Shown in pieces: positions 9,143 through 64,000 of a stretch of 64,000 nucleotides of DNA. A model generated the notes under the pieces. It did no database searches and was not told the origin of the DNA. It saw nothing but the letters and a program-made list of their open reading frames with translations. Numbering within the stretch: position 1 is the stretch's first letter; every line of letters begins with the position of its first letter. The translations under genes were made by a program, and so were the position numbers. Location: contig CAVTTN010000002.1 of NCBI GenBank assembly GCA_963737655.1, positions 1,216,001-1,280,000 of the forward strand, written 5' to 3'. The stretch is from an uncultured Planctomycetota bacterium (GTDB lineage Bacteria > Planctomycetota > Planctomycetia > Isosphaerales > Isosphaeraceae).

Positions 9143-9247
9143 TTGTCAGTTGTCAGTTGTCAGTTGTCAGTTGTCAGTTGTCAGTTGTCAGTTGTCAGTT
9201 GTCAGTTGTCAGTTGTCAGTTGTCAGTTGTCAGTTGTCAGTTGTCAG
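9143..9247 (+). repeat. Heptamer tandem array (TTGTCAG)x15
   Basis: Perfect 105-bp array read directly from the sequence. Confidence 0.97.
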
Positions 9248-9408
9248 TCCACTCGTTCCCACGCTCCGCGTGGGAATGCCGTCTTCGACGCTCCCGCGTC
9301 GGGTTCGGTTCGACGACGGAACCGTGATGGGACGATTACATCGAGGACTCCTCCGGCACGCGGAGCGTGCAAGACGGCATTCCCACGCGGAGCGCGGGAA
9401 CGAGTGGA
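9248..9408. repeat. REP doublet (REPIN-like): 38-bp inverted copies of TCCACTCGTTCCCACGCTCCGCGTGGGAATGCCGTCTT
   Basis: 9248-9285 and the reverse complement of 9371-9408 differ at one base. Each has an internal TTCCCACG...CGTGGGAA-type hairpin. 85-bp spacer. Confidence 0.9.
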
Positions 9409-9452
9409 CTGACAACTGACAACTGATGACTGACAACTGACAACTGACAACT
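9409..9452 (-). repeat. Inverted heptamer array (CTGACAA)x6, one unit variant CTGATGA
   Basis: Reverse complement of the 9143-9247 array. Confidence 0.95.
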
Positions 9453-14954: not shown

Positions 14955-16445
14955 TTACTGGACGGCCGGGGGCCTGTCGATGGGCCGGGGGGCGGCCTGG
15001 CGGACGGTGACCCTGACCCGTGGCAGCGCCCTCTTCAGGACCACGGCCCCGGCCACGGTCGTCTTCGGGGAATACACGAGCAGAGTCCTCAAGCCCTTCA
15101 TGACTCCAAGCTTCGCGAGGCCGGCGTCGGTGACCTCAACATCGCGGAGGTAGAGTTCGGTCAGGGCCGGCAGCGCCACCAGGGCGGGGATCGATGCGTC
15201 GGTGATCGCGCCTCCACCCAGGGTGAGGCGTCGCAGGCCGTTCAAGCCCGCGACCTGGGCCACGACCGCATCGTCCACATCCGGCCCGAACAGGGCGAGG
15301 CTCCACAGCCCCGACAGCCCCGCGATATGCCGGACCTCGGCCGGGTCGATCCGGCATGAAATCAATTGCAGGCCGGTGAGAGCCCGGCATTTCGCCAGGC
15401 CGTCCAGGCGGCGGAGGTTCGCCCTGGACAGATACAGGGTCGTCAGCCCGGGTAGACGTCCCAGCCCTTCGATCCCGCTGCCGGTGATCTTTTCGCCGCT
15501 CACGTCGAGCCAGGTCAGGGACGTCAACTCCCCGAATTCCGCCAGTCCCGCGTCGGAGAAGCGCGAATCGTTGAGGTGGATCTGGTCGATTTGCTTGAGG
15601 TCGCGGAGCGCGGCCGCCGCGCCGTCGCCAACTGGATAATGATCGAGAGAGAAATACTTCATGCTCGTTGCTCGACCCAGGGCGGCGAGATCCGACGGCT
15701 CGGCGGGGCCGTCCGCCATCCGAAGCCGCAGGCTCGTCAGGTTCGGCAAGGCCGAGACGGACTCCAGCCCCTTGCCGGTGATCCCGGACCCCTTCATCGA
15801 GGCGCCGTCGATCAGATGGAGAGTCTTGAGTCGGGTCAATCCCCGGAGGGGCCGGAGCCCGGCGTCCGTGAGTTGCGAACCATCGAACGAGAGCCACTCC
15901 AGGTTCGGCATCCCGGCGAGGTATCGCATCTGGGCATCCTTCGGCGCGGACCCAGTGAGGGCGAGCCACCGGAGGTCGTGGAGGTGTTCAAGGAACGCGA
16001 GCGTCCCGATAGGGCCGCGTCGCTGGTAGGTCAGGTCCTTGAGATGGGGAAGTTGCCGGACCGCATCCAGTCCCGCCTCGGTCACCGCCGAGCCGCCCAT
16101 GATCTCCAGCCGTTCCAGGCGGGTCAGGCGGATGACCTGCTTCATCAGGGCATCGTCGCAGCGACGGTCCGCCAGGATCACGCGGTCGGCCGTATCGAAC
16201 GCGTCGGGCCCGAGCCACTCGCGGAGCCATCGCGGCCCCTTCGGGGTCTTCTTCTTGTGGTCCGGGCTGGCCTCCCAATCGTAGGTGACCGTCCCGCCCG
16301 CCGCCCGGATCGCGGCCACGGCCTCGCGCTGATCCCGGATCGTCGAGGCCCACCAGCCCAGCGCCAGGCCCGTCATCAGCACCAGCCCCAGCATCACGCG
16401 GAGGCTCAGTCCCAGAATGCTTCGCTTCGGCTTCTCTTCGCTCAT
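14955..16445 (-). CDS. Membrane-anchored leucine-rich repeat protein (planctomycete type)
   Basis: N-terminal TM (SLRVMLGLVLMTGLALGWW), QREAVAAIRAAGG, ~24-aa LxxLxLxxxxITDAGL repeats. Confidence 0.88.
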   Translation of the reverse strand: MSEEKPKRSILGLSLRVMLGLVLMTGLALGWWASTIRDQREAVAAIRAAGGTVTYDWEASPDHKKKTPKGPRWLREWLGPDAFDTADRVILADRRCDDALMKQVIRLTRLERLEIMGGSAVTEAGLDAVRQLPHLKDLTYQRRGPIGTLAFLEHLHDLRWLALTGSAPKDAQMRYLAGMPNLEWLSFDGSQLTDAGLRPLRGLTRLKTLHLIDGASMKGSGITGKGLESVSALPNLTSLRLRMADGPAEPSDLAALGRATSMKYFSLDHYPVGDGAAAALRDLKQIDQIHLNDSRFSDAGLAEFGELTSLTWLDVSGEKITGSGIEGLGRLPGLTTLYLSRANLRRLDGLAKCRALTGLQLISCRIDPAEVRHIAGLSGLWSLALFGPDVDDAVVAQVAGLNGLRRLTLGGGAITDASIPALVALPALTELYLRDVEVTDAGLAKLGVMKGLRTLLVYSPKTTVAGAVVLKRALPRVRVTVRQAAPRPIDRPPAVQ

Positions 16446-16484
16446 ACGGTTCGCTCCAGGATGCGAGGGGGATCGGTTTGCGAG

Positions 16485-18029
16485 TCAGCGGACCACTTCC
16501 ATCCTGGGTCGCCGATTCTTCAGGGCCGCGACCCCGGCGTCGGTGACCTTCGTGCCCTTGAGGCTCACGTGGTAGAGTCGGGGCATGGCGACGATCGAGC
16601 GAAGGCCCTCGTCCCCGATCGCGGTGCCGTCGAGGTCCAGGCGACCGAGGCGGGTCAGCTTCGCCAGCTTCGCCAGGCCCTCGTCGGTGATCTTCGTCCT
16701 CGACAGGTCCAACCCGCTGAGGCCCCTCAGCCCGGCCAGCGTCTCGGCGCCGGCGTCGGTGATCTCGGACCCGGCGAGCGACAACTCGCCGAGCTTCGGC
16801 AGGGCCGCGAGCGGGGCGAGGCCGGCATCGGTGAGTTTCGCGTCGATGATGCGGAGCTTCGTCAGCTTCTTCAGCGAGGCGACGGGGCGGAGGCCGTCGT
16901 CGTCGATCGGGCAGCCCCGGAATTCCAGGTCCTTCATCGCGGACGCACGCTCAATCCCCCGGAGAGAGCGGACCTTCGCACCTTCCAGATGGAAGAAATC
17001 GAGCTTCGACAGGCCCCACAGCCGCGTCAAGCCGTCGTCCGTGGCCTTCGGCGCCCGGATACGGATGGCGATTAACGTGGGGATCGCCCCCAGCCGCTTG
17101 AGGGCAGAGTCGCCCAGGTTTGCCCCGCCGAGGCTGACGACCATCAGGGCCGGATGTCCCGCGAGGTGGTCGAACTCAGAGTCCTCCAACTGGCAATTGC
17201 CGAGGGTCACGTGGGTGAGCTTCGTCAGGCCCCTGACGGCGGACAGGCTCGTGACCGCCTGGTCCTTCGGGTGACCGAGATCATCAAGGATCATCACTTC
17301 CAGTTCTGATAGGCGTTTCAGTGAATCCAGTCCGGCCGTTGAAACCCGCGTGTTGATGGCATGGAGTCTGCGAAGACGACCCGAACGGCTCAGGTGGGAC
17401 AGGTCCGCGTCGGTTATTTGAGAGTCCGTCGCGAACATCTCCAGGGCGGGAAGGTCTTCCAGGCGTCGCGAGTCCTCTTCGCGGATCTCAAACCCGTTGA
17501 TCCCCAAGACCTGGAGACCTGTGAAACCCTCGATCCAATCGAGGCGGCCGTATTTTCTGTCGCCATAGATATGGAGGAACTTCATTCGGGGGTGGTTGCG
17601 GAGTGGGGCGAACGCCGAGCCGGTGAGCTCGTTGCTCCTGTAGATGGTCAGGTCTTCGACCGACCCCAGGCTCGCCACCTGGATCATCAGGGCGTTGTTG
17701 ACGAGGGGCGCCTTCTTGGGATCAGGATGCGTGCCGAGGGACACGTAATTCGGCGATTCGAAGAAGTCCTGCCCGAGATGGGCATAGAGCCACTTCCTCG
17801 TGGGCGAAGCCTCCCGGGGCTTGGGGCGGGGCCCGGCCGAGGTAGGCCGCTGATAGCCATAAATCACGCTCCCGCCCGCTTGCCGGATCGCCGCGACGGC
17901 CTCGCGCTGCCGTCTCGCCGAATTGGCCCACCACCCCAGGGCGCCTCCGGCGATCAGGACCAGGACCAGCATCACGCGGAGGCTGAGGCTCAGGGTGTTT
18001 CGCTTCGGCTTCGATATCGGTTCGGTCAT
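16485..18029 (-). CDS. Membrane-anchored leucine-rich repeat protein, paralog of 14955-16445
   Basis: Same N-terminus (SLRVMLVLVLIAGGALGWW...QREAVAAIRQAGG) and LRR repeats. Start inferred at ATG 18029. Confidence 0.88.
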   Translation of the reverse strand: MTEPISKPKRNTLSLSLRVMLVLVLIAGGALGWWANSARRQREAVAAIRQAGGSVIYGYQRPTSAGPRPKPREASPTRKWLYAHLGQDFFESPNYVSLGTHPDPKKAPLVNNALMIQVASLGSVEDLTIYRSNELTGSAFAPLRNHPRMKFLHIYGDRKYGRLDWIEGFTGLQVLGINGFEIREEDSRRLEDLPALEMFATDSQITDADLSHLSRSGRLRRLHAINTRVSTAGLDSLKRLSELEVMILDDLGHPKDQAVTSLSAVRGLTKLTHVTLGNCQLEDSEFDHLAGHPALMVVSLGGANLGDSALKRLGAIPTLIAIRIRAPKATDDGLTRLWGLSKLDFFHLEGAKVRSLRGIERASAMKDLEFRGCPIDDDGLRPVASLKKLTKLRIIDAKLTDAGLAPLAALPKLGELSLAGSEITDAGAETLAGLRGLSGLDLSRTKITDEGLAKLAKLTRLGRLDLDGTAIGDEGLRSIVAMPRLYHVSLKGTKVTDAGVAALKNRRPRMEVVR

Positions 18030-18174
18030 GAGGATCTCCCGATCGCGGAGGATTTCGACGCGCCATCCTACCCGGCCGGACGGGCCGTTTCTCCTATAGA
18101 ATGGGCCGGTCGGCTCGGCTAGGATGGCTGGCACCTCTCGACCTGGCCCCCTCGTCTTGCCGGAGCTTCCCTCG

Positions 18175-23038: not shown

Positions 23039-24907
23039 ATGCATGCCTTCCTGACCCTCGTCCTGGCCGTCGCCTCGGTCGCGAGGGCCGACGATCGCCC
23101 CGACGTGGTCCTCGCCGATTTCGAGGCGGACACTTACGGCGCCTGGGCCGTGACCGGCGAGGCGTTCGGACCCGGGCCGGCCCGGGGTGGGCTGCCGGGA
23201 CAGATGGCCGTCGGGGGGTATCTCGGGGATCGTCTGGTGAACACGTTCTACAAGGGCGACGACGCCGAGGGGACACTGACGTCCCCCGAGTTCGTCGTCG
23301 ATCGCAAGAACCTGAACTTCCTGATCGGCGGCGGCCATCACCCCGGCGACCTGGCCATCCGCCTCTTGATCGACGGGAAGGCGGCGAGGGAAGCCACCGG
23401 GACCGACTCCGAGTTCCTCCGCTGGATGGCGTGGGACGTGGCCGAATTCCGGGGCAAGGCGGCGCGAATCGAGATCCTCGACAGGAAACGAGGCGGATGG
23501 GGACACATCAACGTCGATCAGATCACCCTGAGCGACTCACCTCCGCCCGCCCCTCCGGACGATCGCGAGAAACTGCTGGCGAAGGCCGAGGCGGGCGATC
23601 GCGAGTGGGCCGCGAAGGCCGAGAAAGACCCGGCCCGGCCCACGTTCCACGTCGTCCCGCCCGGCGGCTGGATCAACGACCCGAATGGACCCATCTTTTA
23701 CAAGGGATATTATCACCTTTTCTATCAACACAACCCCTACGGAGACGACTGGGGGAACATGCACTGGGGGCACGTCCGCAGCAGGGACCTGGCCCACTGG
23801 GAGCGATTGCCGATCGCGCTCTGGCCGTCGAAGTCGCGGGGTGAGGATCACGTCTTCTCCGGCTGCATGACGGTCCGGAAGGATGGGACGCCGATGATCT
23901 TCTATACGAGCATCGGCAACCGTTTGCCGGAACAGTGGGCGGCCGTCCCGGAAGACGAAGATTTGATCAAGTGGAAGAAGCACCCGGCGAACCCGATCCT
24001 CGCCGAGACGCTCCACGGCAAGACGAAGGTTTCCGAGTGGCGCGACCCGTTCATTTTCGAGGCGGGGGGCCGGACGTGCATGGTCCTCGGCGGCAACCTG
24101 AACGAGAACCGCGGCGGACAGGCCGTCGTGAACGTCTATCGGGCGGTGGACGAGTCGCTGACCAAGTGGGAATACCTCGGCGTCCTGTTCACTCACCCAG
24201 ACGAGGACGTGAAGAACATCGAATGCCCCCTGTTCTTCCCGATCGGCGAGAAGTGGGTGTTGATCGTGTCGCAGGGGAGGCCGGTCCAGTGGTTCGTGGG
24301 AAGTCTGGACGCGAAGACGCTGCGATTCCGGGCCGAGAGGCGGGGCGATCTGGACCGAGGAAACTTCTACGCGCCGAACGTGGCAAGAGCGCCCGACGGC
24401 CGGACGCTTCTCTGGGGCTGGATCCCCGATTTCCCCAGAAACCAGGGCTGGAACGGCTGCCTGACCTTGCCCCGGGTGCTCACGATCGACACCAAGGGGG
24501 ATCTGGCGTCGGCCCCGGCGGAGGAGGTGGAAGTGCTGAAGAAGCCGCCGGCGAAACCGGACCCGGGCGACGCGATCGAGCTCGTTTCGGGCCTGGACGT
24601 CAAGGCCGAGGGGACCGTGTCCCTGGAGCTGCGAAAGGGCGTGGCCGTCTCGTTCGACGGCAAGAGCCTGGACGTGGCCGGGGCGGCCGTCCCGATCGCC
24701 CTGCCGGCGGGCAAGACGTCGCTGGGTCTTCGCGTCTTCCTCGATCATTCGGTGCTGGAGGTCTACACCGACACCGGCCTGGCCGTCTCGCGGGTCGTCC
24801 CGATGGGACCCACCCATGCGAACGTCAAGACCTCCGCACGCGGAGGCTCGGCCACGGGCTCGATACTCGGACCCTGGCCGATGGAGTCGATCTGGTCGAA
24901 GAAGTGA
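23039..24907 (+). CDS. Secreted GH32 glycoside hydrolase (beta-fructosidase/levanase-like) with an N-terminal accessory domain
   Basis: WINDPNG, WGH, FSG, RDP, ECP and DHSVLEVY motifs; signal peptide from ATG 23039. Confidence 0.92.
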   Translation: MHAFLTLVLAVASVARADDRPDVVLADFEADTYGAWAVTGEAFGPGPARGGLPGQMAVGGYLGDRLVNTFYKGDDAEGTLTSPEFVVDRKNLNFLIGGGHHPGDLAIRLLIDGKAAREATGTDSEFLRWMAWDVAEFRGKAARIEILDRKRGGWGHINVDQITLSDSPPPAPPDDREKLLAKAEAGDREWAAKAEKDPARPTFHVVPPGGWINDPNGPIFYKGYYHLFYQHNPYGDDWGNMHWGHVRSRDLAHWERLPIALWPSKSRGEDHVFSGCMTVRKDGTPMIFYTSIGNRLPEQWAAVPEDEDLIKWKKHPANPILAETLHGKTKVSEWRDPFIFEAGGRTCMVLGGNLNENRGGQAVVNVYRAVDESLTKWEYLGVLFTHPDEDVKNIECPLFFPIGEKWVLIVSQGRPVQWFVGSLDAKTLRFRAERRGDLDRGNFYAPNVARAPDGRTLLWGWIPDFPRNQGWNGCLTLPRVLTIDTKGDLASAPAEEVEVLKKPPAKPDPGDAIELVSGLDVKAEGTVSLELRKGVAVSFDGKSLDVAGAAVPIALPAGKTSLGLRVFLDHSVLEVYTDTGLAVSRVVPMGPTHANVKTSARGGSATGSILGPWPMESIWSKK

Positions 24908-24935
24908 TCAAGAACCGCGACGACGTCCCGACCGT

Positions 24936-26156
24936 TCAATCCACCTTCCCGCGAGCCGCGAGGGCGTCTTCATACAGTTGGAGGATCTGCGGGAGGCAGA
25001 CCTCCAGGCTGTATTTCTCGCGGATCATCGCCAGGCCACCGGGTCCGAGGTGGCGGTATTCGTCGGGCCGGTCGAGGACATCCTCGGCCATGTCGGCGAG
25101 CCGGGCGGCGTCGAAGAAGTCGCAGAGGAGGCCGTTCTCTCCGTGGCGGATCATCTCGCGGACCGGGGCCGTGTCCGAGGCGAGCACCGTCGCCGAGCAG
25201 GCCAGGGCGTCCATCAACGACCAGGAAAGAACAAAGGGTACGGTTAAGTAGACGTGCAGATTCGTGAGCGAGAACAGTCGGGCAAGGTCGGGCGGAGGGA
25301 GGAGGCCGGTGAAGAGGAACCGGGAGAGGTCGTAGGAGTCTCGCGAGAGGACCCACTCCTTGAACGTCATGTCGCCGATGTGCCGCTGGTCGCCTCCGTA
25401 GCAGATGCGGTCCTGCCCCACGACGACGAACAGGACGTCCTTCCGCCGGTCGCCGAGGACTTTGGCCATCTTCATGAAGATGTCGAACCCTCGCATCGAC
25501 TCCATCCCGCGGGCCACATAAGTGATGATCTTCATGTCGTCGGGGATGACCCGGTCGCCGAACTGCCGGGAGGCCCCTTCGATCGGTCGCCAGACCTGGG
25601 TGTCCACGCCGTCGAAGATCGGGCGGACCTTGTCGTGGAAGAGTTTGGGGAGCTGCGCCCTTTGCCAGAGCGTGGGGCTGTAGCCGACGTCGCAGTTTTC
25701 CAGGTCGAGCAGGAGCATCGCGTTGCGGGCCTTGGCCCGCAGGCCGTCGATCTCGGGGCAGGGGAAATCGGGCCGGAAGTCCATGTCCGAGTTCTTGGTG
25801 TGATAGAAATACTCGAAATAGTTAATGATCGGGCAATCGTACAATTCGCGCAGGAACAAGGTCGAACCGAAGCCGGAGTGGCCGACGACGAGGTCGGGCT
25901 TGATGTCGGGGCGTTCGCGGAGGGCCTCGTACACCGCGTGGGTGTGCCACACGGCGTTCTCGAAGGTCCGGCTGCAATAGTGGACCTGCGGAGTCGCGCC
26001 ACCCTGGACGCGATACTGGATCTTCTCCACACCGCCGAACCAGCCCGGGGGCCTCTCGGAGACGAACGTGCAGCGCATCCCGAGATGGCGGTCGAGGTGG
26101 GCCGCGATATGGCCGAACTGCGCCGGGAAGTTCTGGTGGACGAAGAGGACGTGCAT
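24936..26156 (-). CDS. Glycosyltransferase family 4
   Basis: [55 protein letters not shown]. Confidence 0.92.
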
Positions 26157-26162
26157 TTGGGA

Positions 26163-26257
26163 GTGGGCAGAAAGCAGTGGGCAGTGGGCAGTGGGCAGAA
26201 AGCAGTGGGCAGTGGGCAGTGGGCAGTGGGCAGTGGGCAGTGGGCAGTGGGCAGTGG
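26163..26257 (+). repeat. Heptamer array (GTGGGCA)x13 plus a partial unit; two units are GAAAGCA
   Basis: Read directly. It ends 3 bp from the stop of the four-helix-bundle gene and starts 6 bp from the GT4 ATG. Confidence 0.97.
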
Positions 26258-26260
26258 AGT

Positions 26261-26638
26261 TTATACTTCGAACTGGGCTTTGTGGTCCAGCCTGGCGATG
26301 AGTCCGTTGAGGAGTCTTCCAACTTCGGAGGCCCTGGCTAGGAGGTCGTTCGTGGGGTCATCCTCCAGGAATTCGAGGCGATTTGCGATCATCACGTGCG
26401 TTTCGACTTCGCGGAGCGAACCGTGGGCGATCCAGAGGAACCGGAGGAAGTCGCGGGTCGTCTCGCGTCCCTGGCCCTCGGCGATGTTGGATGGTATCGA
26501 CACGACCGCTCGACGCAACTGGCTCGTGAGCCCGAATCGCTCCTCGCTCGGGAATGGCCGGGTGGCACGATAGATCCACTCCACCAGGTCCATCGCCCGT
26601 TGCCAGACGATCAAATCCTGATAATTTCGAACCGTCAT
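26261..26638 (-). CDS. Four-helix-bundle protein (23S rRNA intervening sequence protein / Avd-like family), 125 aa
   Basis: [18 protein letters not shown]...[29 protein letters not shown]...[13 protein letters not shown], the family signature. GGAG lies 8 nt upstream of ATG 26638. Confidence 0.95.
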
Positions 26639-26671
26639 ACCATGAACTCCAATAAGAGAACGCAATCCGGT

Positions 26672-26838
26672 CACTGCCCACTGCCCACTGCCCACTGCCC
26701 ACTGCCCACTGCCCACTGCCCACTGCCCACTGCCCACTGCCCACTGCCCACTGCCCACTGCCCACTGCCCACTGCCCACTGCCCACTGCCCACTGCCCAC
26801 TGCCCACTGCCCACTGCCCACTGCCCACTGCCCACTGC
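26672..26838 (-). repeat. Inverted heptamer array (CACTGCC)x23 plus 6 bp
   Basis: Perfect array and the reverse complement of 26163-26257. It abuts and overlaps the TAG stop of the upstream gene. Confidence 0.97.
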
Positions 26839-27701
26839 TACGTGCGGATCAGCCCGATAAACCCCGTCCCAGAGTGCTCGATTTCGAGGAACGAGGCATT
26901 CTCCGGGGCGGGTTTGTAAATCGTGAAGGCTCGCATGACTCCGAGGGTGGCGGCGCTTTCCAGAGGGCCGATGAAACGGGTGTCTCGGTCGAGAAAATCG
27001 GGGCGGTCGGACCAGGTTTTCATCTGATCCGCACTCAGGAAATAGCAGCCCGAGTGAGGGTTTGCCGGGCGGAGGAAGGCGACGTCCCGGTTGAGGACCT
27101 TGCTCCTCAGCGCGGGCTCGTCGCCGATGTCGCGGAACCGGGCAATCACGTGATCGGCGAGGTCTCCGTCAATGTACGCCTTGTGGACGAGGCCGCCTCT
27201 CGCCAGCTCGAAGCGGTTGGGCATGAGGAGCTTTTCGGGGCCGAGGTGGCCGTGGAACCAGGCGAGCTTGGCGAAGAACCAGGGGTCGCGGACGATCAGG
27301 TCGTCTTCGAGGTAGCAATAATAGTCGAACTGGCCGAGGGCGTCTCCGAGGATCTCCCGGCAGGCGAAGCCGAGGAACATCGGGTCGAGGTCGGGCTCGG
27401 CCGGGCGGTGCTCGATCAGGGAAGGGTCGATCGGCAGGGCGCCAAGGAGGTGTTTGTCGCCGACGGTGCGGACGACGACGTGGACGTCGGCGACCATCGG
27501 CCGGTTGATCGGCCGGGTGACCTTGCGGCCGATGTCGATGGTGGATTGGGTCCGGTCGAAGTGCTGGAACAGGGCGGCGACGCACGAGGCGAGGGCCTCG
27601 GCGCGGGGCCTCGGGTCCTTCGCCACGGAGCCGTGGGCGCGGCCGTCCCCGGCCTGGCCGAGGGCGTCGAAATAATGAGGGATGACCGCGAGGATTCGCA
27701 T
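26838..27701 (-). CDS. Conserved hypothetical protein, possible GT-A-fold glycosyltransferase
   Basis: Start [11 protein letters not shown] at 27701; [11 protein letters not shown] resembles a DxD-type metal/nucleotide-sugar motif; co-oriented with GT4. Confidence 0.6.
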
Positions 27702-27786
27702 TGCGGGGCGGTGTGGGTCGATTCCGATCGTGGGCGAATGACCGGGGCGGGGCGGGCCCGCCCCCGGATGACGCACTTCCAGAACT

Positions 27787-30786
27787 CTACTTTCGGAGTC
27801 CCTGGAGGATCTGGTCGAACTCGGGGTCGGGCTGGATGGGGTAGATGTCGGGCTCGGCCACGAGTTCGTCGGCGCTCTTCCAGCCGTGGGCGATGGCGTC
27901 GCGGAGGGCCTTGAAGGAGGCGTCTCGGTAGCGCTTGACGAGGGACTCGTCGGGGGGATTGGCCGCCTTCGCCGCCCCGTAGCAGAGGGCGTAGCCGCAG
28001 GCGATGTCCTTGAGGATCAGGGCGTTCTCGGGCGGGTTCTTGAGGACGTCGTCGGCGATCTTCGCGGCCTCGGCGTGCTCCCGGCATCGGGCCAGGATGA
28101 GCATGAGCTCGATCTCGGCCACCCTCCGCGGGTCGCCCTTGGCCGAGGGCTCGGCGGCGAGCTCTCGGCGGAGGTCCAGGCACTTGCGATACATCTTGTC
28201 CGACTCTTCGAGGGCGTTGGCCTCCAGGCAGGCGGTGGCGTAGTAATACAGGGCCAGGGCGAAGTCGCTCTTGGCCCGGGTGTTGTTCGGGTCGGCCTGG
28301 AAGCGGCTCTTGAAGCCCAGGGCGGCCTTGAAGTACATGTCCTTCGCCTTGGCCGGGTCCTTGGGGGCGAAGAGGAGGAAGGCGGTGCCGAACTTCTGGT
28401 AGGACAGGAGGATGTCCCGGCCGACCTGGGCGTGGCCTTCGAACTCCTTGGCGAGGTCCTGGCGGACCTCGTAGCTCCTCTCGTAGTAGCGGCGGCCGTC
28501 CTCGACCTTGCCGAGTCGGAGGCTGTAGAGGTCGCCCAGGGCGTCGTACAGGCCGGCGAGTTCGCGACGGGCCTCGCTGTCCCGGGCGGCGTCGATCGAG
28601 AGGGATTCGCGGAGGGTGACCTCCTGCTCGTATAGGGGCCTGGCGGCCAGGGGGTCGCCGGCGACCTGTTCGAGCCGGGCCAGGGCGCCCAGGGCGTTGG
28701 CCACGGCCCTCTTGGCCACGTCGTCCTGCGGCCACTTCTCCAGCCAGTGGCGGCGGATCTCCAGGGCCTCCGCGTAGTACTTCCGGGCCTCGGCCACGTC
28801 CGAGCGGACCCGGAACATGTAGTCGCCCATGGTGTACTTGCTGGAGGCCTTGTTCTTCAGGGCGGCCAGGTCGGTGGGGTCGAGCTTGTACAGGGCCTCG
28901 GTCAATCGCTCCATCTCCTGGAGCTCGGGGAGGATCTTCTTGACCTCCTCGCCCCCCTGGAGCATGAAGACCTCGGCGCGGGCCTGGTGGATGCCGGCGA
29001 GGGTCCGGTTGACCATCGCGTCGGACTCTCGGCTGCCGGCCCCCTTGGCGCGGAGCTCGTCCATCACGCCCACGGCTCGGGCCATGCTCATCTGCGTGAC
29101 CTTGAGCATCTCCTTGCGGACGTCATCGGTGCCCGGGATGTCGCGGAGCCTCATGTTGGCCAGGACGCTGACGTACCTCTGGGCCTCGATCATCGTGTCG
29201 GTCTGGCCGATGGCCGCCTGGGCGATCTCGTGGGCCTCTCGCTCTCGCTTCAGGGCCAGGTCCTCGTTGTCCTTGGCCCTCTTCTCGTTCTGCTGGGCGA
29301 GGGTCTTGGCGTCGTCGGCGGCCTTCTTGGCGACGGTCAGCGCGTCGTTCTTCTCCTTGAAGACGACGGCGGCGCCGAGGGCCACGCCGGTGGTCACGAC
29401 CATCATCGAGGCCACCGCGGCGATCGAGGCGGCGATCTTCGGGTTTCGCCGGCACCATCGCCAGGCCCGTTCGGGGGCCGACACGGGGCGGGCGAGGATC
29501 GGCTCGCCGTTGAGGTAGCGCTCCAGGTCGGCGGCCATCCCGCCGACGTCCTCGTACCGCTTCTTCGGGTCTTTTTGGAGGGCCTTCAGCGAGATCGTTT
29601 CCAGGTCCTTCGGCACCTTCGGCTGGAGCCGGGTGGGCGGGACGGGCTCCTGGTTGCGGACCTGTTCGAGGGTATCGAGCGGGTTGGCGCCCTGATAGGG
29701 GGGGCGGCCGGTGAGCATCTCGTAGAGGATGGCGCCGATGGCGTGCTGGTCGGCCAGGGGGCCGATCTCGCCGGTCTTGCCCCAGGCCTGCTCCGGGGCC
29801 ATGTACGACGGCGTGCCCATGATGGCGCCGTCGCGGGTCTGCTGGCTGTCCCCTTCGAGCCGCTTGGCGAGGCCGAAGTCGGTGATCTTGGGATCGCCGT
29901 TCTTGGTCATCAGGACGTTGGCGGGCTTCAGGTCGCGGTGGATGATGCCTTGCTGGTGGGCGAAGTGCATCGCCTCGGCCAGGGTCTTGACGATCTTGGC
30001 CGCGAACCGGACGGGCTGGGGCTTGCCGCCGATGGTCTGCTGGAGGCTGCCGCCGTCGACGAATTCCAGGCTGAAGAAGGGGAGGCCGTCGCGCTCGCCG
30101 ACGTCGTGGATCTGGACGATGTGGTTATGTTTCAGGGCGGCGACGGCCTGGGCCTCGATCAGGAAGCGGGCGAGCTGGTCGGCCGAGGCGTGGGCCCCGG
30201 CGAGGACCATCTTGAGGGCGACCAGGCGGTCGAGCTTCGTCTGCCTGGCCTTGTAGACGACGCCCATGCCGCCGCGGCCGAGCTCGGAGAGCAGGGTATA
30301 GCCGGCGACCTTCGGCATGTTGTCGAAGTGGATCTCGGCCCCGCCGTGCTCGCCCGAGAGGGAGTAGGCGTTGGTCTTGCCCTCGCCGTCGAGGGTGGGC
30401 AGGGCGACCCGGGTATCGTGGAGGTCCGAGCCGGGGACCGAGCCGAAGTTCATGCCGAGGGTGTCGCCCTCGACGGGAGGCCGGGTCGATCCCGAGATCC
30501 GGGTCGAGCCGGGGGTGTGGGCGATGGTCTGGTCGGGGGCGGCGCCGAGGTGGGGCCGGGGGAAGGCCAGGTTGGTGACCTCGACGGTGGCATCGGAGGC
30601 GGCCGAGGCGAGGTCGATCGTGGCCTGGACGGTCTCGCCCCCGCCGTCGTCGGAGGGGGAGGCCGAGGCGGGCCGGGAGTGGCCGTCGAAGATCGCGGTC
30701 GCGGCGACTGTGGCGTCGTCGCCGCCGGGGCGGGGGTCTGAGGGCGGCCCGGAGGGCTTCGGCGGGGTGGCGTGCGGCCTGTTCAT
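27787..30786 (-). CDS. Hanks-type Ser/Thr protein kinase with TM helix and TPR-like C-terminal repeats
   Basis: [42 protein letters not shown] + TM segment, then helical repeats. Confidence 0.95.
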
Positions 30787-31364: not shown

Positions 31365-34300
31365 ATGTCTTCCAAGAGCCGGGATCGCTTCTGGGAACTC
31401 GCCCGACGGGGCCGCTCCTCCCGTCGCCAGAATACGAAGAAAATCGACCGCGCCGCCCAGATCGAGCGGCTGGCGGAATTGGAGCCGCGCCTCCTGCTCT
31501 CGAATTTTAGCGTGACGAACAACGCCGATACCGGCCCGGGGTCGCTCCGCAATGCGATCACCTCGGCGAATGCAACGCCCGGCAGCTCGATCGGGTTCAG
31601 CCTGCCGTCGGGCCAGCTGACGATCACCCCGGCCACGGCCCTGCCGGCGATCGCCGCCAGCACGATCATCGACGCCACGAGCCAGAGCGGCTACGGCTCC
31701 AGCCCGCTCGTGACGCTCGACGGCGCCTCGCTCGGCTCGACCGGGATCGGCCTCCAGCTCTCCGCCGCGAACACGACGGTCAAGGGCCTGGCGATCGTCG
31801 ACTTCGGCAACATCGGCCTCCAGATCTCGGCCTCCGGGACCACGAACGACGTGATCCAGGGGGACTACTTCGGGCTGAAGACCGACGCCACGACGGCCGC
31901 GCCGAACAAGTACGGCCTCACCATCAACGGCTCGGGCAACACCATCGGCGGCGGCGGCACGGCGCAGATGGATATCATCTCGGGCAACACGAACAACGGG
32001 ATCGCGATCGTCGGCGGGTCGAGCAACGTCTTCATCGGCGACCTCATCGGCCTGAACGCGGCCCAGTCGGCGGCCCGGCCCAACTCCATCGGCGTGTACA
32101 TCAACGGCGGGAACGGCAACGTCTTCTCCGGCAACGTGATCTCGGGAAACACCGGCTACGGCGTGGACATCGTCAGCGGGACGGGCGAGACCTTCACGCA
32201 CAACTGGATCGGCCTGGTCGGCGGCAATGGCGCGATCATGCCGAACACCGGCGACGGGATCTTCGTCGCGACCTCGGGCAACGTCATCGGCGACACCAGC
32301 GGCAACGGCGGCAACATCATCGCCGGCAACGGCGGTTACGGGATCGACGGCTCCGGCGCCTCGGACAACCTGATCCAGCAGAACTTCGTCGGGACCGACC
32401 AGAACGGCGCCTCGGCCAAGGGGAACGCCCTGGGCGGGATCTACCTCAGCGGCGGCACCGGCAACACGATCGGCGGGACGGTCGCGGCGACCCGGAACGT
32501 GATCTCGGGCAACACGGGCTTCGGCGTGGGCCTCTCCGGCACGTCGAACCTGGTCCTGGGGAACTACATCGGGACCACGCCGACGGGCGGCTCCGTCCGG
32601 GGCAACGCGGGCGTGGGAGTCTCGATCCTCGGCTCCGCCAACACGATCGGCGGGACGGTCCTCGGGGCCGGCAACGTGATCTCGGGCAACGGCGGGGCGG
32701 GCGTCTTCCTCGACACCTCGTCGGCCACCAGCAACCGCGTGGCCGGCAACTTCCTCGGCACGGACGCTTCGGGGACCGTCGCCCTGGGCAACGGCACATG
32801 GGGCGTGATCGACCGCAACGCGCAGGGCAACACCATCGGCGCGGCGGAGTCGCTGACCCAGGCGACCTCGCTCGGCGGCGGCCGGAACGTGATCGCCGGC
32901 AATGCTCAGGGGGGCATCGCGATCTATGGCGGCAACGCCACGAACGTGCTCGTCCGGGGCAACTACCTCGGCGTGGACGGCACCGGCAACGCCGCCCTGG
33001 GCAACGCCTACAGCGGCGTATTCGTCGGCGTGGGAACCGGCTTCAGCCCCAGCGTGGGCGGGACGGCCACCGGGGCCACGATCACCGGCAACCTCGTCTC
33101 GGGCAATCAGCAGCACGGGGTCTGGATCGACGGCGGCGACTCCACGACCCCCTCGGCCACGAATGCGTCGGTGACGGGCAATATCGTCGGCCTGAACGCC
33201 GGAGGCACGGCGAAGCTGCCCAACACGTTCGCAGGCGTCTTCGCGCAGGAGGCCACCGGCAACACGATCGGCGGGACGACCGCCGCGGCCTCGAACGTGA
33301 TCGCCGGCAACAGCACGTCGGGAATCTCGCTGGGCACCGGATCGACGGGCAACCTGGTCCTCGGCAACTCCATCGGCACGAACGCGACGGGTTCGACGAT
33401 CCTGGGCAACGCGGCCCAGGGCGTTTATGTGAACGCCGCGAACAACACGATCGGAGCGGCGAGCGGGACGACCCAGGTCATCGGCGGGAACGCCTACAAC
33501 GGGATCTTCCTCGACTCCGGCGCCACGTCGTCGGTCGTCCTGGGCAACTACATCGGCGAGGGGACGGGCGCGAGCGGGGCGGCGATCCCGAACTCCTACA
33601 ACGGGATCGCGGTGACCGGGGCCAGCGTGAGCCTGGGCGTGGCGGGCGCCGGCAACTTCATCGCGGGGAACGTGCAGACCGGGATCTATTTCACCGGCGC
33701 CTCGGCGACCGCCGGCCTCGTCGTCGGCAACACGATTGGCCTGAACGCCTCGGCGCGATCGTGCCCAACGTCCAGGCGGGCGTCTTGCTCGACAATGGCG
33801 CCTCGGGGATCACGGTCGGCGGGACGGCGGCGTTGGCCCGCAACATCATCTCGGGCAACGGGGGAGACGGGATTGATGTGACGGGGTCAACGAGTCAGTC
33901 GCTCATCCAGGGCAACTACATCGGGACCAACCCGGCCGGTACCGCTCCGGTTCCCAACGCCTTCCAGGGGATCTACGTCACCGGCAATGCCGCCAACAAC
34001 ACCATTGGCGGATTGGCGGCATTGACGCTCTCGGCGGCTGCGGCGGGCGCGAGGAACGTGATCTCGGGCAACACCCAGTCGGGCGTCTTCATCTATCAAG
34101 CGGGCCCAGGAAATCTCGTCGAGGGGAACTATATCGGTACGGACGCAACCGGCGCGAATGCGGTGCCAAACCTTTACTACGGCGTCCAGGACGATTCTCC
34201 CTCGAACACGATCGGCGGACTCGTCGCGGGATCGGCGAACCTTATCTCGGGCAACCTCTACTACGGAATTAACCTCTACGGCTCGGGGGCGTCGCAGATC

Positions 34301-61300: not shown

Positions 61301-64000
61301 ATGACCACCGTGATCGTCGGCGGGACCGTGCTCGATCCCGGAGGCGGCGAGACCCATACCGTCCTGGTCGACTGGAAGGACGGCTCGACGACCACCGTGA
61401 ACCTCGCCGTCGGCCAGTCCTTCTTCACCGCCACCCACAACTACCCGCAGGACTCCTCCACGGCCTATGCGATCACGGCGAGGGTGACCGACTCCTTCGG
61501 CGCCTCCGGGACGGCCGGGGTGGCCGTCACCGTCCACAACGACCCGCCGACGATCGCGACCCTCACGGTCTCGCCCGGGACCACGATCCTCGAGGGGACG
61601 AAGGTCCTGCTCACCGGCTCGTTCACCGATCCCGGGGCGCTGGACTCTCACGATGTGACCGTCCACTGGGGAGACGGCTCGTCGGACTACACGTTCCACC
61701 TCGCGGCCGGCGTGACGTCGTTCAACGCCGGGTCCGACCCGAACCTCTCGCACGTGTATGCCGACAACCCCACGGCCCCGGCGACGAGCTTCGGCCTGTC
61801 CGTCACGGTCAAGGACAACGGCGGCGGTTCGACCGTCAGGAACGTCCCGGTCACCGTCCAGAACGGGGCGCCGACGCTCTCGGGCGTGGCCCTCAGCGCC
61901 CTGAACATCAACGAGGGCGACTCGGTCACCCTCTCCGGCCAGGTCGCCGACCCGGGCGTGAACGACTCTCACACCCTGACGATCGACTGGGGCGACGGCT
62001 CGGGGCTCCAGACGATCCAGCTCGCCCCGGGGAGCCAGGCGAACAAGCCCCTGCCGGGCGTCACGCCGTTCTCGGTGACCCACCAGTATGTGAACAACAC
62101 GGTCGGCCTGTCGCCGAGCTCGTTCGTCGTGACCGTGACCGCCACCGACAAGGACCTCGCCTCGACCTCGACCAGCCCCGGGACCGTCCGGGTCACCAAC
62201 CTCTCGCCGAAGGCCAGCATCGGCGAGGACCCGGCCCTGAACACCGACCCGTCGATGATCACGCTGACCTCCACGGCGTCCGACCCGGGGCCGGTCGATA
62301 ACCTCTCGCTCAACTACTCCTGGACGCTGACGAGGACCGACGGCGGGGTCGAGACCCTCCAGGGCGTCGGCTCCGCGTTCAAGCACTTCACCTTCGCCTC
62401 GGACGCCAGCAATACGTATGACGTGGCGCTGACGGTCACCGACCTCGACGGCCTGAGCGACACCGTGATGTCGCTGGTGATCGTCCCGACCGGCAGCTCA
62501 TACGAGGTCACCGGCGACCTGCACGGCCACACCCAGGCCGTCGTCCTGTCCAACAGCGACGGCTTCACCGTCGATGCCACGAAGTCGACGATCCCGGTCT
62601 TCGTCGACGCCCAGGGGATGAATTCGACGGTCCTCGGCGGCCCGGGGAACGACACGATCGTCACCGGACACGGCAACGACTCGATCAACGGCGGGATGGG
62701 GAACAACTACTACAACGTCGTCATCGGCAGCAGCCCGACGATCACCCAGCCGAACGCCCCGGGCACCGTCGCCACGATCGACCTGTCCCGGACCAACTTC
62801 GCCGTGAGCGTGGACCTGAGCATCACCGGGACCCCGCAGATGGTCGATCAGTCGATCGGCCGGAACGACTCCTTGACGCTCAACGGGTCGTTCCAGGACC
62901 TCATCGACACGTCGGGCAACAACGACACGTTGATGGGCAATTCCGGCGACAACCTGATCCGTGGCGGGACCGGGGACGACCTCCTCTTCGGCGGAGCCGG
63001 CAACGACACGATCTATTCCGGGTCGGCGGCCGGGAACCAATCGACGCTCAAGGGAGGCGCCGGTTCGAGCCTCCTGTTCGGCGGCCTGGGCAACGACTCG
63101 GTGGTCTCCGGGTCTCTGGCCGGGGGCCACAGCACCCTGGTGGGCGGCCCGGGCAACCAGATCCTCTTCGGCGGCCTGGGGAACGACTCGCTGGTCTCCG
63201 GGTCTCTGGTCGGGAACCAGACGACGCTGATGGGCGGCCCGGGCAACCAGATCCTCTTCGGCGGCCTCGGCAACGACACGCTGATGGCCACCGGCTCGGG
63301 CCAGAATACGCTGGTGGGCGGCTCGGGGGCCCAGCTCCTCTTCGGAGGGCTCGGGAACGACTCGATCGTGTCGAACTCCGGGCCGACGACGCCTCACACG
63401 GTGGTGGGCGGGGGCGGTTCGGACATCCTCTTCGGCGGCCTCGGGCCCGACACGGTGGGCGCCGGCTCGTTCTCGCCGACCGGCCAGTACACCCCGGGCA
63501 CGGGCAACAGCACGATCGTCGGCGGGCCCGGGCGCAAGTCCTCTTCGGCGGCCTGGGGAACGACTCGATCCAGGGCGGGACCGGCCCGAGCACGATCGCC
63601 GGCAACGGCGGGGCGGACATCCTCTTCGGCGGCGCCGGCAACGACACCATCGGCGCCGGCTCGTTCACCCCGGGCCCCAACGGCTCGATGACCTACACGC
63701 CGATGAGCGGCCCGGCCACCCTGGTGGGCGGATCGGGCAACGTCCTCCTGTTCGGCGGCCTCGGCCCGGATACGCTGGCCGCGGGCGGCTCGGGCCAGGA
63801 TACGTTGGTCGGCGGCCCCGGCGCCGAGGTCCTCTTCGGCGGCTCGGGTCCGAACACGATCAGCGGTGGAGGCGGCGGCGACACGATCCAGGCCGGGGCC
63901 GGCCCGACCCTGGCGTTCTCCGGCGACCCGGGCAACCCGAACGTCGGCTCGCCCGGCGACGTCTCGCTCCTGTTCGGCGGCAGCGGCCCGGACACCCTCG
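31365..64000 (+). CDS. Giant surface protein/adhesin (>10,800 aa, 3' end outside the window); frameshifts near 33755, 54842, 56485 and 63531
   Basis: Basic leader + LEPRLLLS; many NTIGG...GNVISGN beta-helix repeats. LamG-like domains at ~38115-38735, 40740-41380, 44293-44935, 48757-49345 and 52171-52805. Delta-60 propeller ~54835-56060, PKD ~59803-60055, FG-GAP ~60125-61245, PKD-like ~61300-62480, RTX-like GGxGND repeats from ~62635 to the end. Repeat phase continues across each frameshift. Confidence 0.9.

Follow-up and report, generated by a model that had tools for sequence, protein, structure and literature searches.

A four-helix-bundle gene between inverted heptamer arrays, a candidate self-spreading insert at stop-to-start junctions of bacterial genes

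We describe a cassette in which the gene of a four-helix-bundle protein lies between two inverted arrays of the 7-base unit CAGTGGG. Our preferred explanation, to which we give an even chance of being right, is that the cassette is a self-spreading junction insert and that its protein, likely a pentamer, binds its own heptamer. This reading draws on features established by comparison: the anatomy of the cassette, its recurrence at unrelated junctions, the filled and empty sites, the tracking of the protein by the unit, and purifying selection on the protein. As far as our searches reach, the cassette class is real, general and unpublished; the open full-text literature yielded no account of a gene-plus-inverted-heptamer cassette outside rRNA.

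The cassette was found in a stretch of 64,000 nucleotides, hereafter the window (Table 1). An earlier note on this DNA had described a gene and inverted arrays filling the gap between two putative glycosylation genes. The layout was confirmed, with 14 units in the 3' arm and the GT4 ATG (26156) 4 nt past the arm end where that note had counted 13 units and 6 nt, a counting difference. The 3' arm is composed of 10 CCCACTG, two CTTTCTG, one TCCACTG and one CCCACTC, and occupies the usual position of the GT4 ribosome-binding site. No other of the 64 exact 7-mer arrays in the 7.6-Mb genome is as long as the 5' arm, which is thus not a chance occurrence. Matches to PF12000 and PF00534 confirmed the identity of the GT4 gene. 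By contrast, "glycosylation gene" is unproven for the upstream host gene, because it gave zero Pfam or NCBIfam matches; its nearest Atlas clusters have no Pfam family in common. We speak of an operon because the genes are co-directional and a scan of the locus found no promoter- or terminator-like site. An Rfam search of 24000-29000 returned no match, and the cassette sits between two protein-coding genes, not inside a 23S rRNA gene. The 199-nt spacer led us to reject in-frame read-through out of the upstream gene. A two-codon ORF (ATG GTA TGA; 26643-26635, minus strand) overlaps the start of the four-helix gene, between GGAG and ATG.

Table 1. Positions, within the window, of the cassette, its two host genes and a gene-less sister pair
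Feature	Position	Strand	Remark
Upstream host gene, 287 aa	26838..27701	-	Outside the cassette; its TAG abuts the 5' arm
Stop codon TAG of the upstream gene	26840-26838	-	Read from the sequence
5' purine-rich arm, 23 perfect CAGTGGG + CAGTG (x23.7)	26672..26837	-	Begins at the next base after the upstream stop
Loop between the arms, 413 nt	26671-26259	-	Holds GGAG and the 125-aa ORF
GGAG, putative ribosome-binding site	26647..26650	-	8 nt ahead of the ATG; putative function, from the sequence
Four-helix-bundle gene, 125 aa, PF05635/TIGR02436	26261..26638	-	ATG at 26638; TAA ends at 26261
3' pyrimidine-rich arm, 14 CCCACTG-type units	26161..26258	-	Reverse complement of the 5' arm
GT4 glycosyltransferase, 406 aa, downstream host gene	24936..26156	-	Outside the cassette
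Gene-less sister pair, TTGTCAG x15 / ACTGACA x6.4	9143..9452		Unit is that of the paralogue; 159-nt loop

The encoded protein matches PF05635 (E 4.7e-39; 133.3 bits for a cut-off of 33.8) and TIGR02436 (E 2.3e-38; 130.7 bits for a cut-off of 24), and stays under the cut-offs of the Avd models PF22296 (33.9 of 40 bits) and NF033474 (31.3 of 80). A close homologue (E 9e-28) is the five-chain pentamer structure of XCC0516 (PDB 2GSC), and the protein studied here likely forms a pentameric ring as well; a single-sequence AlphaFold model of it is all-helical, with a pLDDT of only 50. Among 43 disjoint homologue pairs, the median dN/dS was 0.13 in the 25 that were unsaturated, the other 18 being saturated at silent sites; judging from these codon comparisons, purifying selection acts on the protein. 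The GC3 of its gene is 0.75, against 0.87-0.88 in neighbouring genes. Matches to TAL effectors were rejected as sums of weak repeat matches with no stretch passing alone.

The loop carries the four-helix gene only, with no transposase gene within the element. The earlier note had seen no mobility enzyme in the window, which holds for reverse transcriptases and Y1 transposases, since profile searches of its 64 kb matched neither. Genome-wide, there are seven Y1_Tnp matches and three RVT_1 matches, the latter all at least 0.5 Mb from the cassette. Two of the three score best as retron-like (C2:719484-720116, L327, and C2:6187635-6188243, L328; best model retron St85, below cut-off), and L328 is a long fusion. 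Nothing in the genome was found to tie the seven Y1-transposase matches or the two retron-like reverse transcriptases to the cassette. The genome also encodes RNase III.

Inverted heptamer arrays turned out to be a general companion of this gene family. Of 112 homologous loci collected, 108 had at least 150 nt on each side; period-7 arrays flanked the gene upstream in 86 of these and downstream in 82, with 72 having both. Among the periods scanned, 4 to 11, no other exceeded 3 loci, and control windows 800 nt away gave 4/87 and 1/87. The two arms were inverted (reverse complements within one mismatch) in 60 of the 72 loci, compared with 12.9 (maximum 24) in shuffled pairings. According to record titles, the hosts include Acidobacteriota, Chloroflexota, Planctomycetota, deltaproteobacteria, Chlorobium, spirochaetes and others. 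In an enlarged set of 229 genes (224 unique, 210 with enough flank), the median arm has 4.6-4.7 copies, which makes the CAGTGGG locus an extreme; the mode of 4-5 units per arm may reflect the detection threshold and short-read assembly. The 24 and 14 copies found here are probably a slippage expansion of a normal 4-5-copy arm. About one third of the loci have no detectable arm on one side.

The position of the arms is equally regular. The 5' arm starts within -30 to +12 nt of a co-directional stop codon at 83 of 116 loci (mirror position, 28/117), and a start codon follows within 30 nt of the 3' arm at 73 of 117 (mirror position, 9/116). Two four-helix genes, L030 and L031, have inverted arms that look 6-periodic, L030 belonging to a separate long-branch clade. 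The gene also occurs on five contigs of a viral collection (L322-L326); among the four with enough flank, three have the 5' arm and two have both arms. Viral contigs are a possible transfer route for the gene.

The genome itself holds two PF05635 genes, both armed, and their cassettes contain its two longest exact 7-mer arrays. In the cassette of the paralogue, whose gene lies at C2:5657545-5657925, the order is TGA, GTTGTCA x18, gene, CTGACAA x13, 19 nt, ATG, and the flanking genes are ExbB-like and ExbD-like, names taken from translations rather than from a family scan. Arrays of the CAGTGGG class account for 45 of the 64 exact ones. Relaxed scoring gave 91 arrays, 69 of them in four units (52 CAGTGGG, 7 CAGTTGT, and 5 and 5 of two others); 10 arrays belong to two further units that have no matching gene in the genome. 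Facing pairs number 21, with the purine arm first in 21/21 and no reversed case, and 19 of them are gene-less, that is, without a four-helix gene. The gene-less pairs mostly carry the unit of a resident protein, as comparison of the arrays shows; their arms are alike and their loops, by eye, differ. Thirteen of the 21 pairs abut a stop codon, against 3% expected per random non-core position with crude gene calls. By raw count, five pairs lie at ribosomal junctions (nusG-rplK, rplA-rplJ, rplR-rpsE, rplN-rplX and rpoA-rplQ, rplN and rplQ being recognised by translation) and one after infB; the bccP-like junction carries another gene-less pair. One gene-less pair falls in the window (Table 1). 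The earlier note was silent on such sister hairpins, as it was on the tracking of the protein by the unit. In the loop of this pair, 9252-9407 is a palindromic element, which we take to be REP/MITE-like; its core has 16 loose matches in the genome, and only this one adjoins a heptamer array. Elsewhere in the genome (G000), a single array at C2:1651509-1651595 changes unit midway, from CAGTGGG x6 to TGGTTGG x6.

Across 120 genomes of the bacterial family, (CAGTGGG)3 has 145 matches in this genome, none in three congeners and at most 26 elsewhere. The four-helix gene is present in 57 of the 120. It occurs in 10 of 11 other genomes with a (CAGTGGG)3 match and in 47 of 109 without, a comparison in which kin are not independent. 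G115 (26 matches) and the congener G003 (its own unit) have arrays and no four-helix gene was found in either, both being 77% complete. Together with the two orphan units of this genome, they disfavour a strict need for a resident gene. In G115 (C296, L368), the space between facing CAGTGGG arms is taken by another tandem repeat, of about 21 nt, in place of a gene.

We then compared filled and empty junctions. A clean empty allele of the CAGTGGG locus was sought and not found, either at 29 further loci of the upstream gene or at 29 of GT4. The upstream and GT4 genes are directly adjacent in the same order at none of the 29 other upstream-gene loci, and the four-helix gene is at none of these; nor is it upstream of GT4 at any of the 29 other GT4 loci, two of which have a short solo array of other units. 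In the congener G002, an unrelated antisense gene stands between the same two host genes; G001 has a different neighbour at this locus, and the G003 contig ends there. The empty-site comparison proposed in the earlier note was more informative at the paralogue's junction, where both states occur. Of 31 loci of the ExbB-ExbD-like junction (the 30 best matches and one already known to be filled), three contain cassettes, each with its own unit; both congeners lack one, their gaps measuring 53 and 89 nt. Grouping the three proteins as one clade was rejected (AU p 7e-64; 38 rows drawn randomly from the set, four long branches excluded, LG+G4, quick search), which indicates that this junction was filled repeatedly or that its cassette was replaced. 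Unrelated insertions of 697 and 351 nt stand at the same junction in L153 and L163, and it looks like a general insertion hot spot; two loci of this junction show heptamer-like remnants by eye. Together with the arrays at homologues, the filled and empty sites support the earlier proposal of a self-contained repeat-plus-protein module.

The sites of gene-less pairs also change among congeners. Eight such sites were tried; five could be aligned in each of the three congeners, and a sixth in G001 alone. At these, other units formed facing heptamer arrays in G003 (5/5) and in G002 (two clear cases, one weak), and G001, which is 96% complete, had a period-7 hairpin at none of its six alignable junctions. 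The main unit of G003 was confined to G003 among the four genomes compared. Loops at the same junction were no more alike than loops at different junctions (five loops across congeners, unrelated). No enzyme, target-site duplication or near-identical copy at a new site came to light, nor was there an empty allele of this site close enough to reveal such a duplication; movement is therefore read from the patchy distribution only.

Comparison of loci shows that the heptamer unit follows the protein and not the host. Among 76 near relatives of this protein, 34 have a unit that differs from CAGTGGG by at most one mismatch, against 1 of 50 for the paralogue, the two sets coming from different collections; the former have CAGTNGN-like units, the latter CAGCNNT-like ones. 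At 70-80% protein identity, 54% of pairs have units no more than one mismatch apart, at 40-50% just 4%; among 28 paralogue pairs of the same genome, a single one is that close. Such tracking would also be expected from simple co-inheritance. In the first clade, Asn5 goes with unit base G7 (20/21 vs 7/55) and Thr or Ser61 with G5 (38/44 vs 3/32); base 1 of the unit varies together with residue 107 in both clades. This residue-base covariation exceeds that of traits simulated on the tree (family-wise p <=0.01), the tree being poorly resolved and the units phased by a rule of our own. A top-scoring, all-gap column was ignored as an artefact. Tests on independent pairs had just 2-4 supported pairs among those listed, too few for significance. 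In 17 held-out loci with a called unit, the rule linking Asn5 to G7 held (4/4 vs 4/13), and those for residue 61 (10/15 vs 2/2) and residue 107 (2/4 vs 5/13) failed. A residue-to-base code is suggested by these alignments, as a lead and not as a result.

The arms can pair around the loop, as the earlier note had proposed: the predicted stem spans 93 bp (-227 kcal/mol), encloses the 413-nt loop with the four-helix gene alone and buries 20 nt ahead of the GT4 ATG. For the 801-nt region, the predicted folding energy is -454 kcal/mol (z -16 vs 20 shuffles). If selection kept the sense-strand RNA stem, G-U pairs should outnumber A-C mismatches, but the 134 of 210 loci with alignable arms gave 202 G-T against 240 A-C, and 43 against 61 when counted by locus; where arms expanded recently, this test has little power. 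What one arm tolerates, the other tolerates in mirror image, with A>G at 0.10 in the 5' arm and T>C at 0.12 in the 3' arm. Both observations agree better with each arm being read as a series of units than with a stem maintained for its pairing. A G-quadruplex is possible on paper from the 23 GGG runs; many units of the family lack G runs.

Several known systems resemble the cassette in part. In REP/REPIN-RAYT systems, one protein gene is flanked by a motif that is also scattered over the genome as gene-less intergenic inverted pairs. Unlike these, the cassette has arms of tandem heptamers instead of palindromic REPs, its protein is not an HUH nuclease and has no known catalytic activity, and no Y1 transposase lies between the repeats, all seven genomic matches being outside the window. 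Two hallmarks of insertion sequences and MITEs are likewise absent, namely a transposase in the element and near-identical dispersed copies.

ORF-bearing intervening sequences (IVSs) of 23S rRNA have in common with the cassette the protein family, a unit of about 430-680 nt with complementary ends, and a place inside a host transcript. As described in PMC4990558, the Coxiella burnetii IVS, in helix 45, carries tandem heptamers GACAGAT just ahead of the S23p start codon and is cut by RNase III at the first repeat, and its S23p is reported not to be made in vivo and described as decaying. This supports the family tie to RNase III-cut 23S IVSs drawn in the earlier note, and complementary ends around an S23p-type ORF are also what we found here (93-bp predicted stem, PF05635 gene). 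In contrast to ORF-bearing IVSs, the cassette lies between protein-coding genes, its arms have 24 and 14 units where Coxiella has a 28-bp stem, and its protein is under purifying selection where that of Coxiella was described as decaying. The cassette resembles an ORF-bearing IVS moved into mRNA operons, yet is not a member of that class, because it lies outside rRNA and RNase III excision is here only putative.

Dispersed heptamers have been described elsewhere. In Xanthomonas, GGGAATC arrays are mostly of four units and form 70-75 facing pairs per genome, close behind operon stop codons (PMC4692102). Row 15 of its Table A is a four-unit array 6 nt after bccP that overlaps the start annotated for XCC0516; the table records no partner for it. 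These repeats were studied as G-quadruplex formers, and the main text contains neither "four helix" nor "intervening"; as far as those terms show, the link from array to XCC0516 was not drawn there. In anatomy, the Xanthomonas pairs match our gene-less ones, and 13 of the 21 facing pairs in this genome likewise abut a stop codon. Direct repeats of TAACTGA occur in Beggiatoaceae, cyanobacteria and Bacteroidetes, mostly as solo arrays that end just ahead of start codons, replace the Shine-Dalgarno sequence and are over-represented at translation genes; S1, Csp and CsrA are named there as candidate binders, and the text examined mentions neither four-helix nor IVS proteins (PMC4679880). The reverse complement, written CAGTTAT, fits the unit class of the cassettes. 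Avd is a pentameric barrel resembling S23 proteins; all five subunits bind an RNA stem-loop encoded beside its own gene, and flipped-out bases are taken up in crevices between subunits (bioRxiv 10.1101/2023.10.23.563531). The cassette protein differs in falling below the Avd cut-offs and in having no DGR reverse transcriptase adjacent. Two further papers place the gene inside cas operons (PMC3936711) and among strain-unique genes (PMC8700078), and heptamers go unmentioned in the text examined of either.

In the mechanism that we favour, cassettes and their gene-less derivatives would arrive repeatedly at stop-to-start junctions of co-directional genes, where an insert would disrupt no gene and the host promoter would transcribe it. 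The ring of five subunits would bind its own 7-base unit at about one unit per subunit, in line with the 4-5-unit mode of the arms and by analogy with the uptake of flipped-out bases between Avd subunits; both arms would be binding sites. Gene-less pairs may be derivatives made or moved in trans, or may be left after loss of the gene. The hairpin in the mRNA could make the insert easier to tolerate, either because the stop of the upstream gene and the start of the downstream one come to lie side by side or because RNase III cuts it as in 23S rRNA. Cutting and joining are assigned to an assumed host or trans-acting enzyme, because the protein has no known catalytic site. That RNase III excision is instead the very purpose of the element, and controls GT4 from an intervening sequence of the mRNA, was the version of the earlier note, and we hold it to be rather improbable. 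It would account for the long stem that buries the region before the GT4 ATG, it can call on the RNase III gene of the genome, and it has the precedent of the Coxiella heptamers cut at the first repeat ahead of S23p (PMC4990558). A role specific to GT4 finds no support in the other GT4 loci (0/29 with the gene upstream, though two have short solo arrays of other units) or in the modules between unrelated genes elsewhere. The absence of a G-U excess and the same unit-level changes in both arms also speak against it; any cutting by RNase III could be incidental.

A domesticated RNA-binding regulator is unlikely, in our view. Such a protein would bind heptamer arms in mRNA junctions, including its own, and tune downstream translation or stability; the gene-less pairs would be its regulon, with units rewritten as the protein changes. 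The low dN/dS, the five of 21 pairs at ribosomal-operon junctions with one more after infB, and the hairpins of other units at the same junctions in congeners all agree with this, as does the 3' arm, which often replaces the ribosome-binding region like the TAACTGA arrays of Beggiatoaceae, for which a regulator was proposed (PMC4679880). A regulon is harder to reconcile with a gene found in fewer than half of the family genomes (57/120) and with changing sites, with the nearly complete G001 that lacks hairpins at six alignable junctions, with loops no more alike at the same junction than at different ones, and with unrelated cassettes at one junction. It is quite improbable that the arrays have a passive origin, growing by slippage in junction hairpins where the gene is a cargo that landed in loops, like the palindrome at 9143-9452. 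Slippage typically yields long perfect arrays, the genome has 19 gene-less pairs and only 2 with the gene, and loops hold other cargo or no gene. This account leaves unexplained, however, why the period is only 7 and the polarity fixed (21 to 0), why paralogues of one genome differ in unit, and why units grow steadily more distant with decreasing protein identity. The self-spreading insert remains our preferred reading.

A bolder extension of it, possible but doubtful, would make the pentamer a sequence-specific reader with a partly modular code, in which residues near 5, 61, 107 and 116 set bases 7, 5, 1 and 4. The pentamer would act in trans for a class of mobile elements not yet described, one that writes hairpins with heptamer arms into stop-to-start junctions of highly expressed operons or moves them there. 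That one system would have produced the 23S rRNA IVSs as well as the GGGAATC pairs of Xanthomonas and the TAACTGA arrays, and the gene studied here would be the master copy for roughly 50 CAGTGGG arrays of its genome.

The cassette links two questions, namely the function of the large S23p/four-helix-bundle family and the dispersed heptamer arrays of many bacteria, whose origin and binder are left open in PMC4692102 and PMC4679880. This copy stands out by its very long arms, and its genome, where two paralogues go with two units and each unit also occurs in gene-less arrays, lends itself to a crossed binding assay. Should recognition of the unit follow a residue code, the protein would represent a new type of small ring-shaped nucleic-acid reader, related to DGR Avd and acting with no reverse transcriptase beside it.

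Other features were noted in the window. From 32798 to 54925 and onward on the plus strand runs an ORF of 7375 aa (by first start) with repeated beta-helix-like and LamG-like segments by eye; its frame appears to change near 33800 and 54900, and it may be part of a larger surface-protein gene split by frameshifts or assembly errors. Translations of 14955-18134 (minus strand) reveal two tandem leucine-rich-repeat-like genes of similar architecture, and 63072-63361 contains coding 90-nt tandem repeats that are, by eye, RTX-like and glycine-rich.
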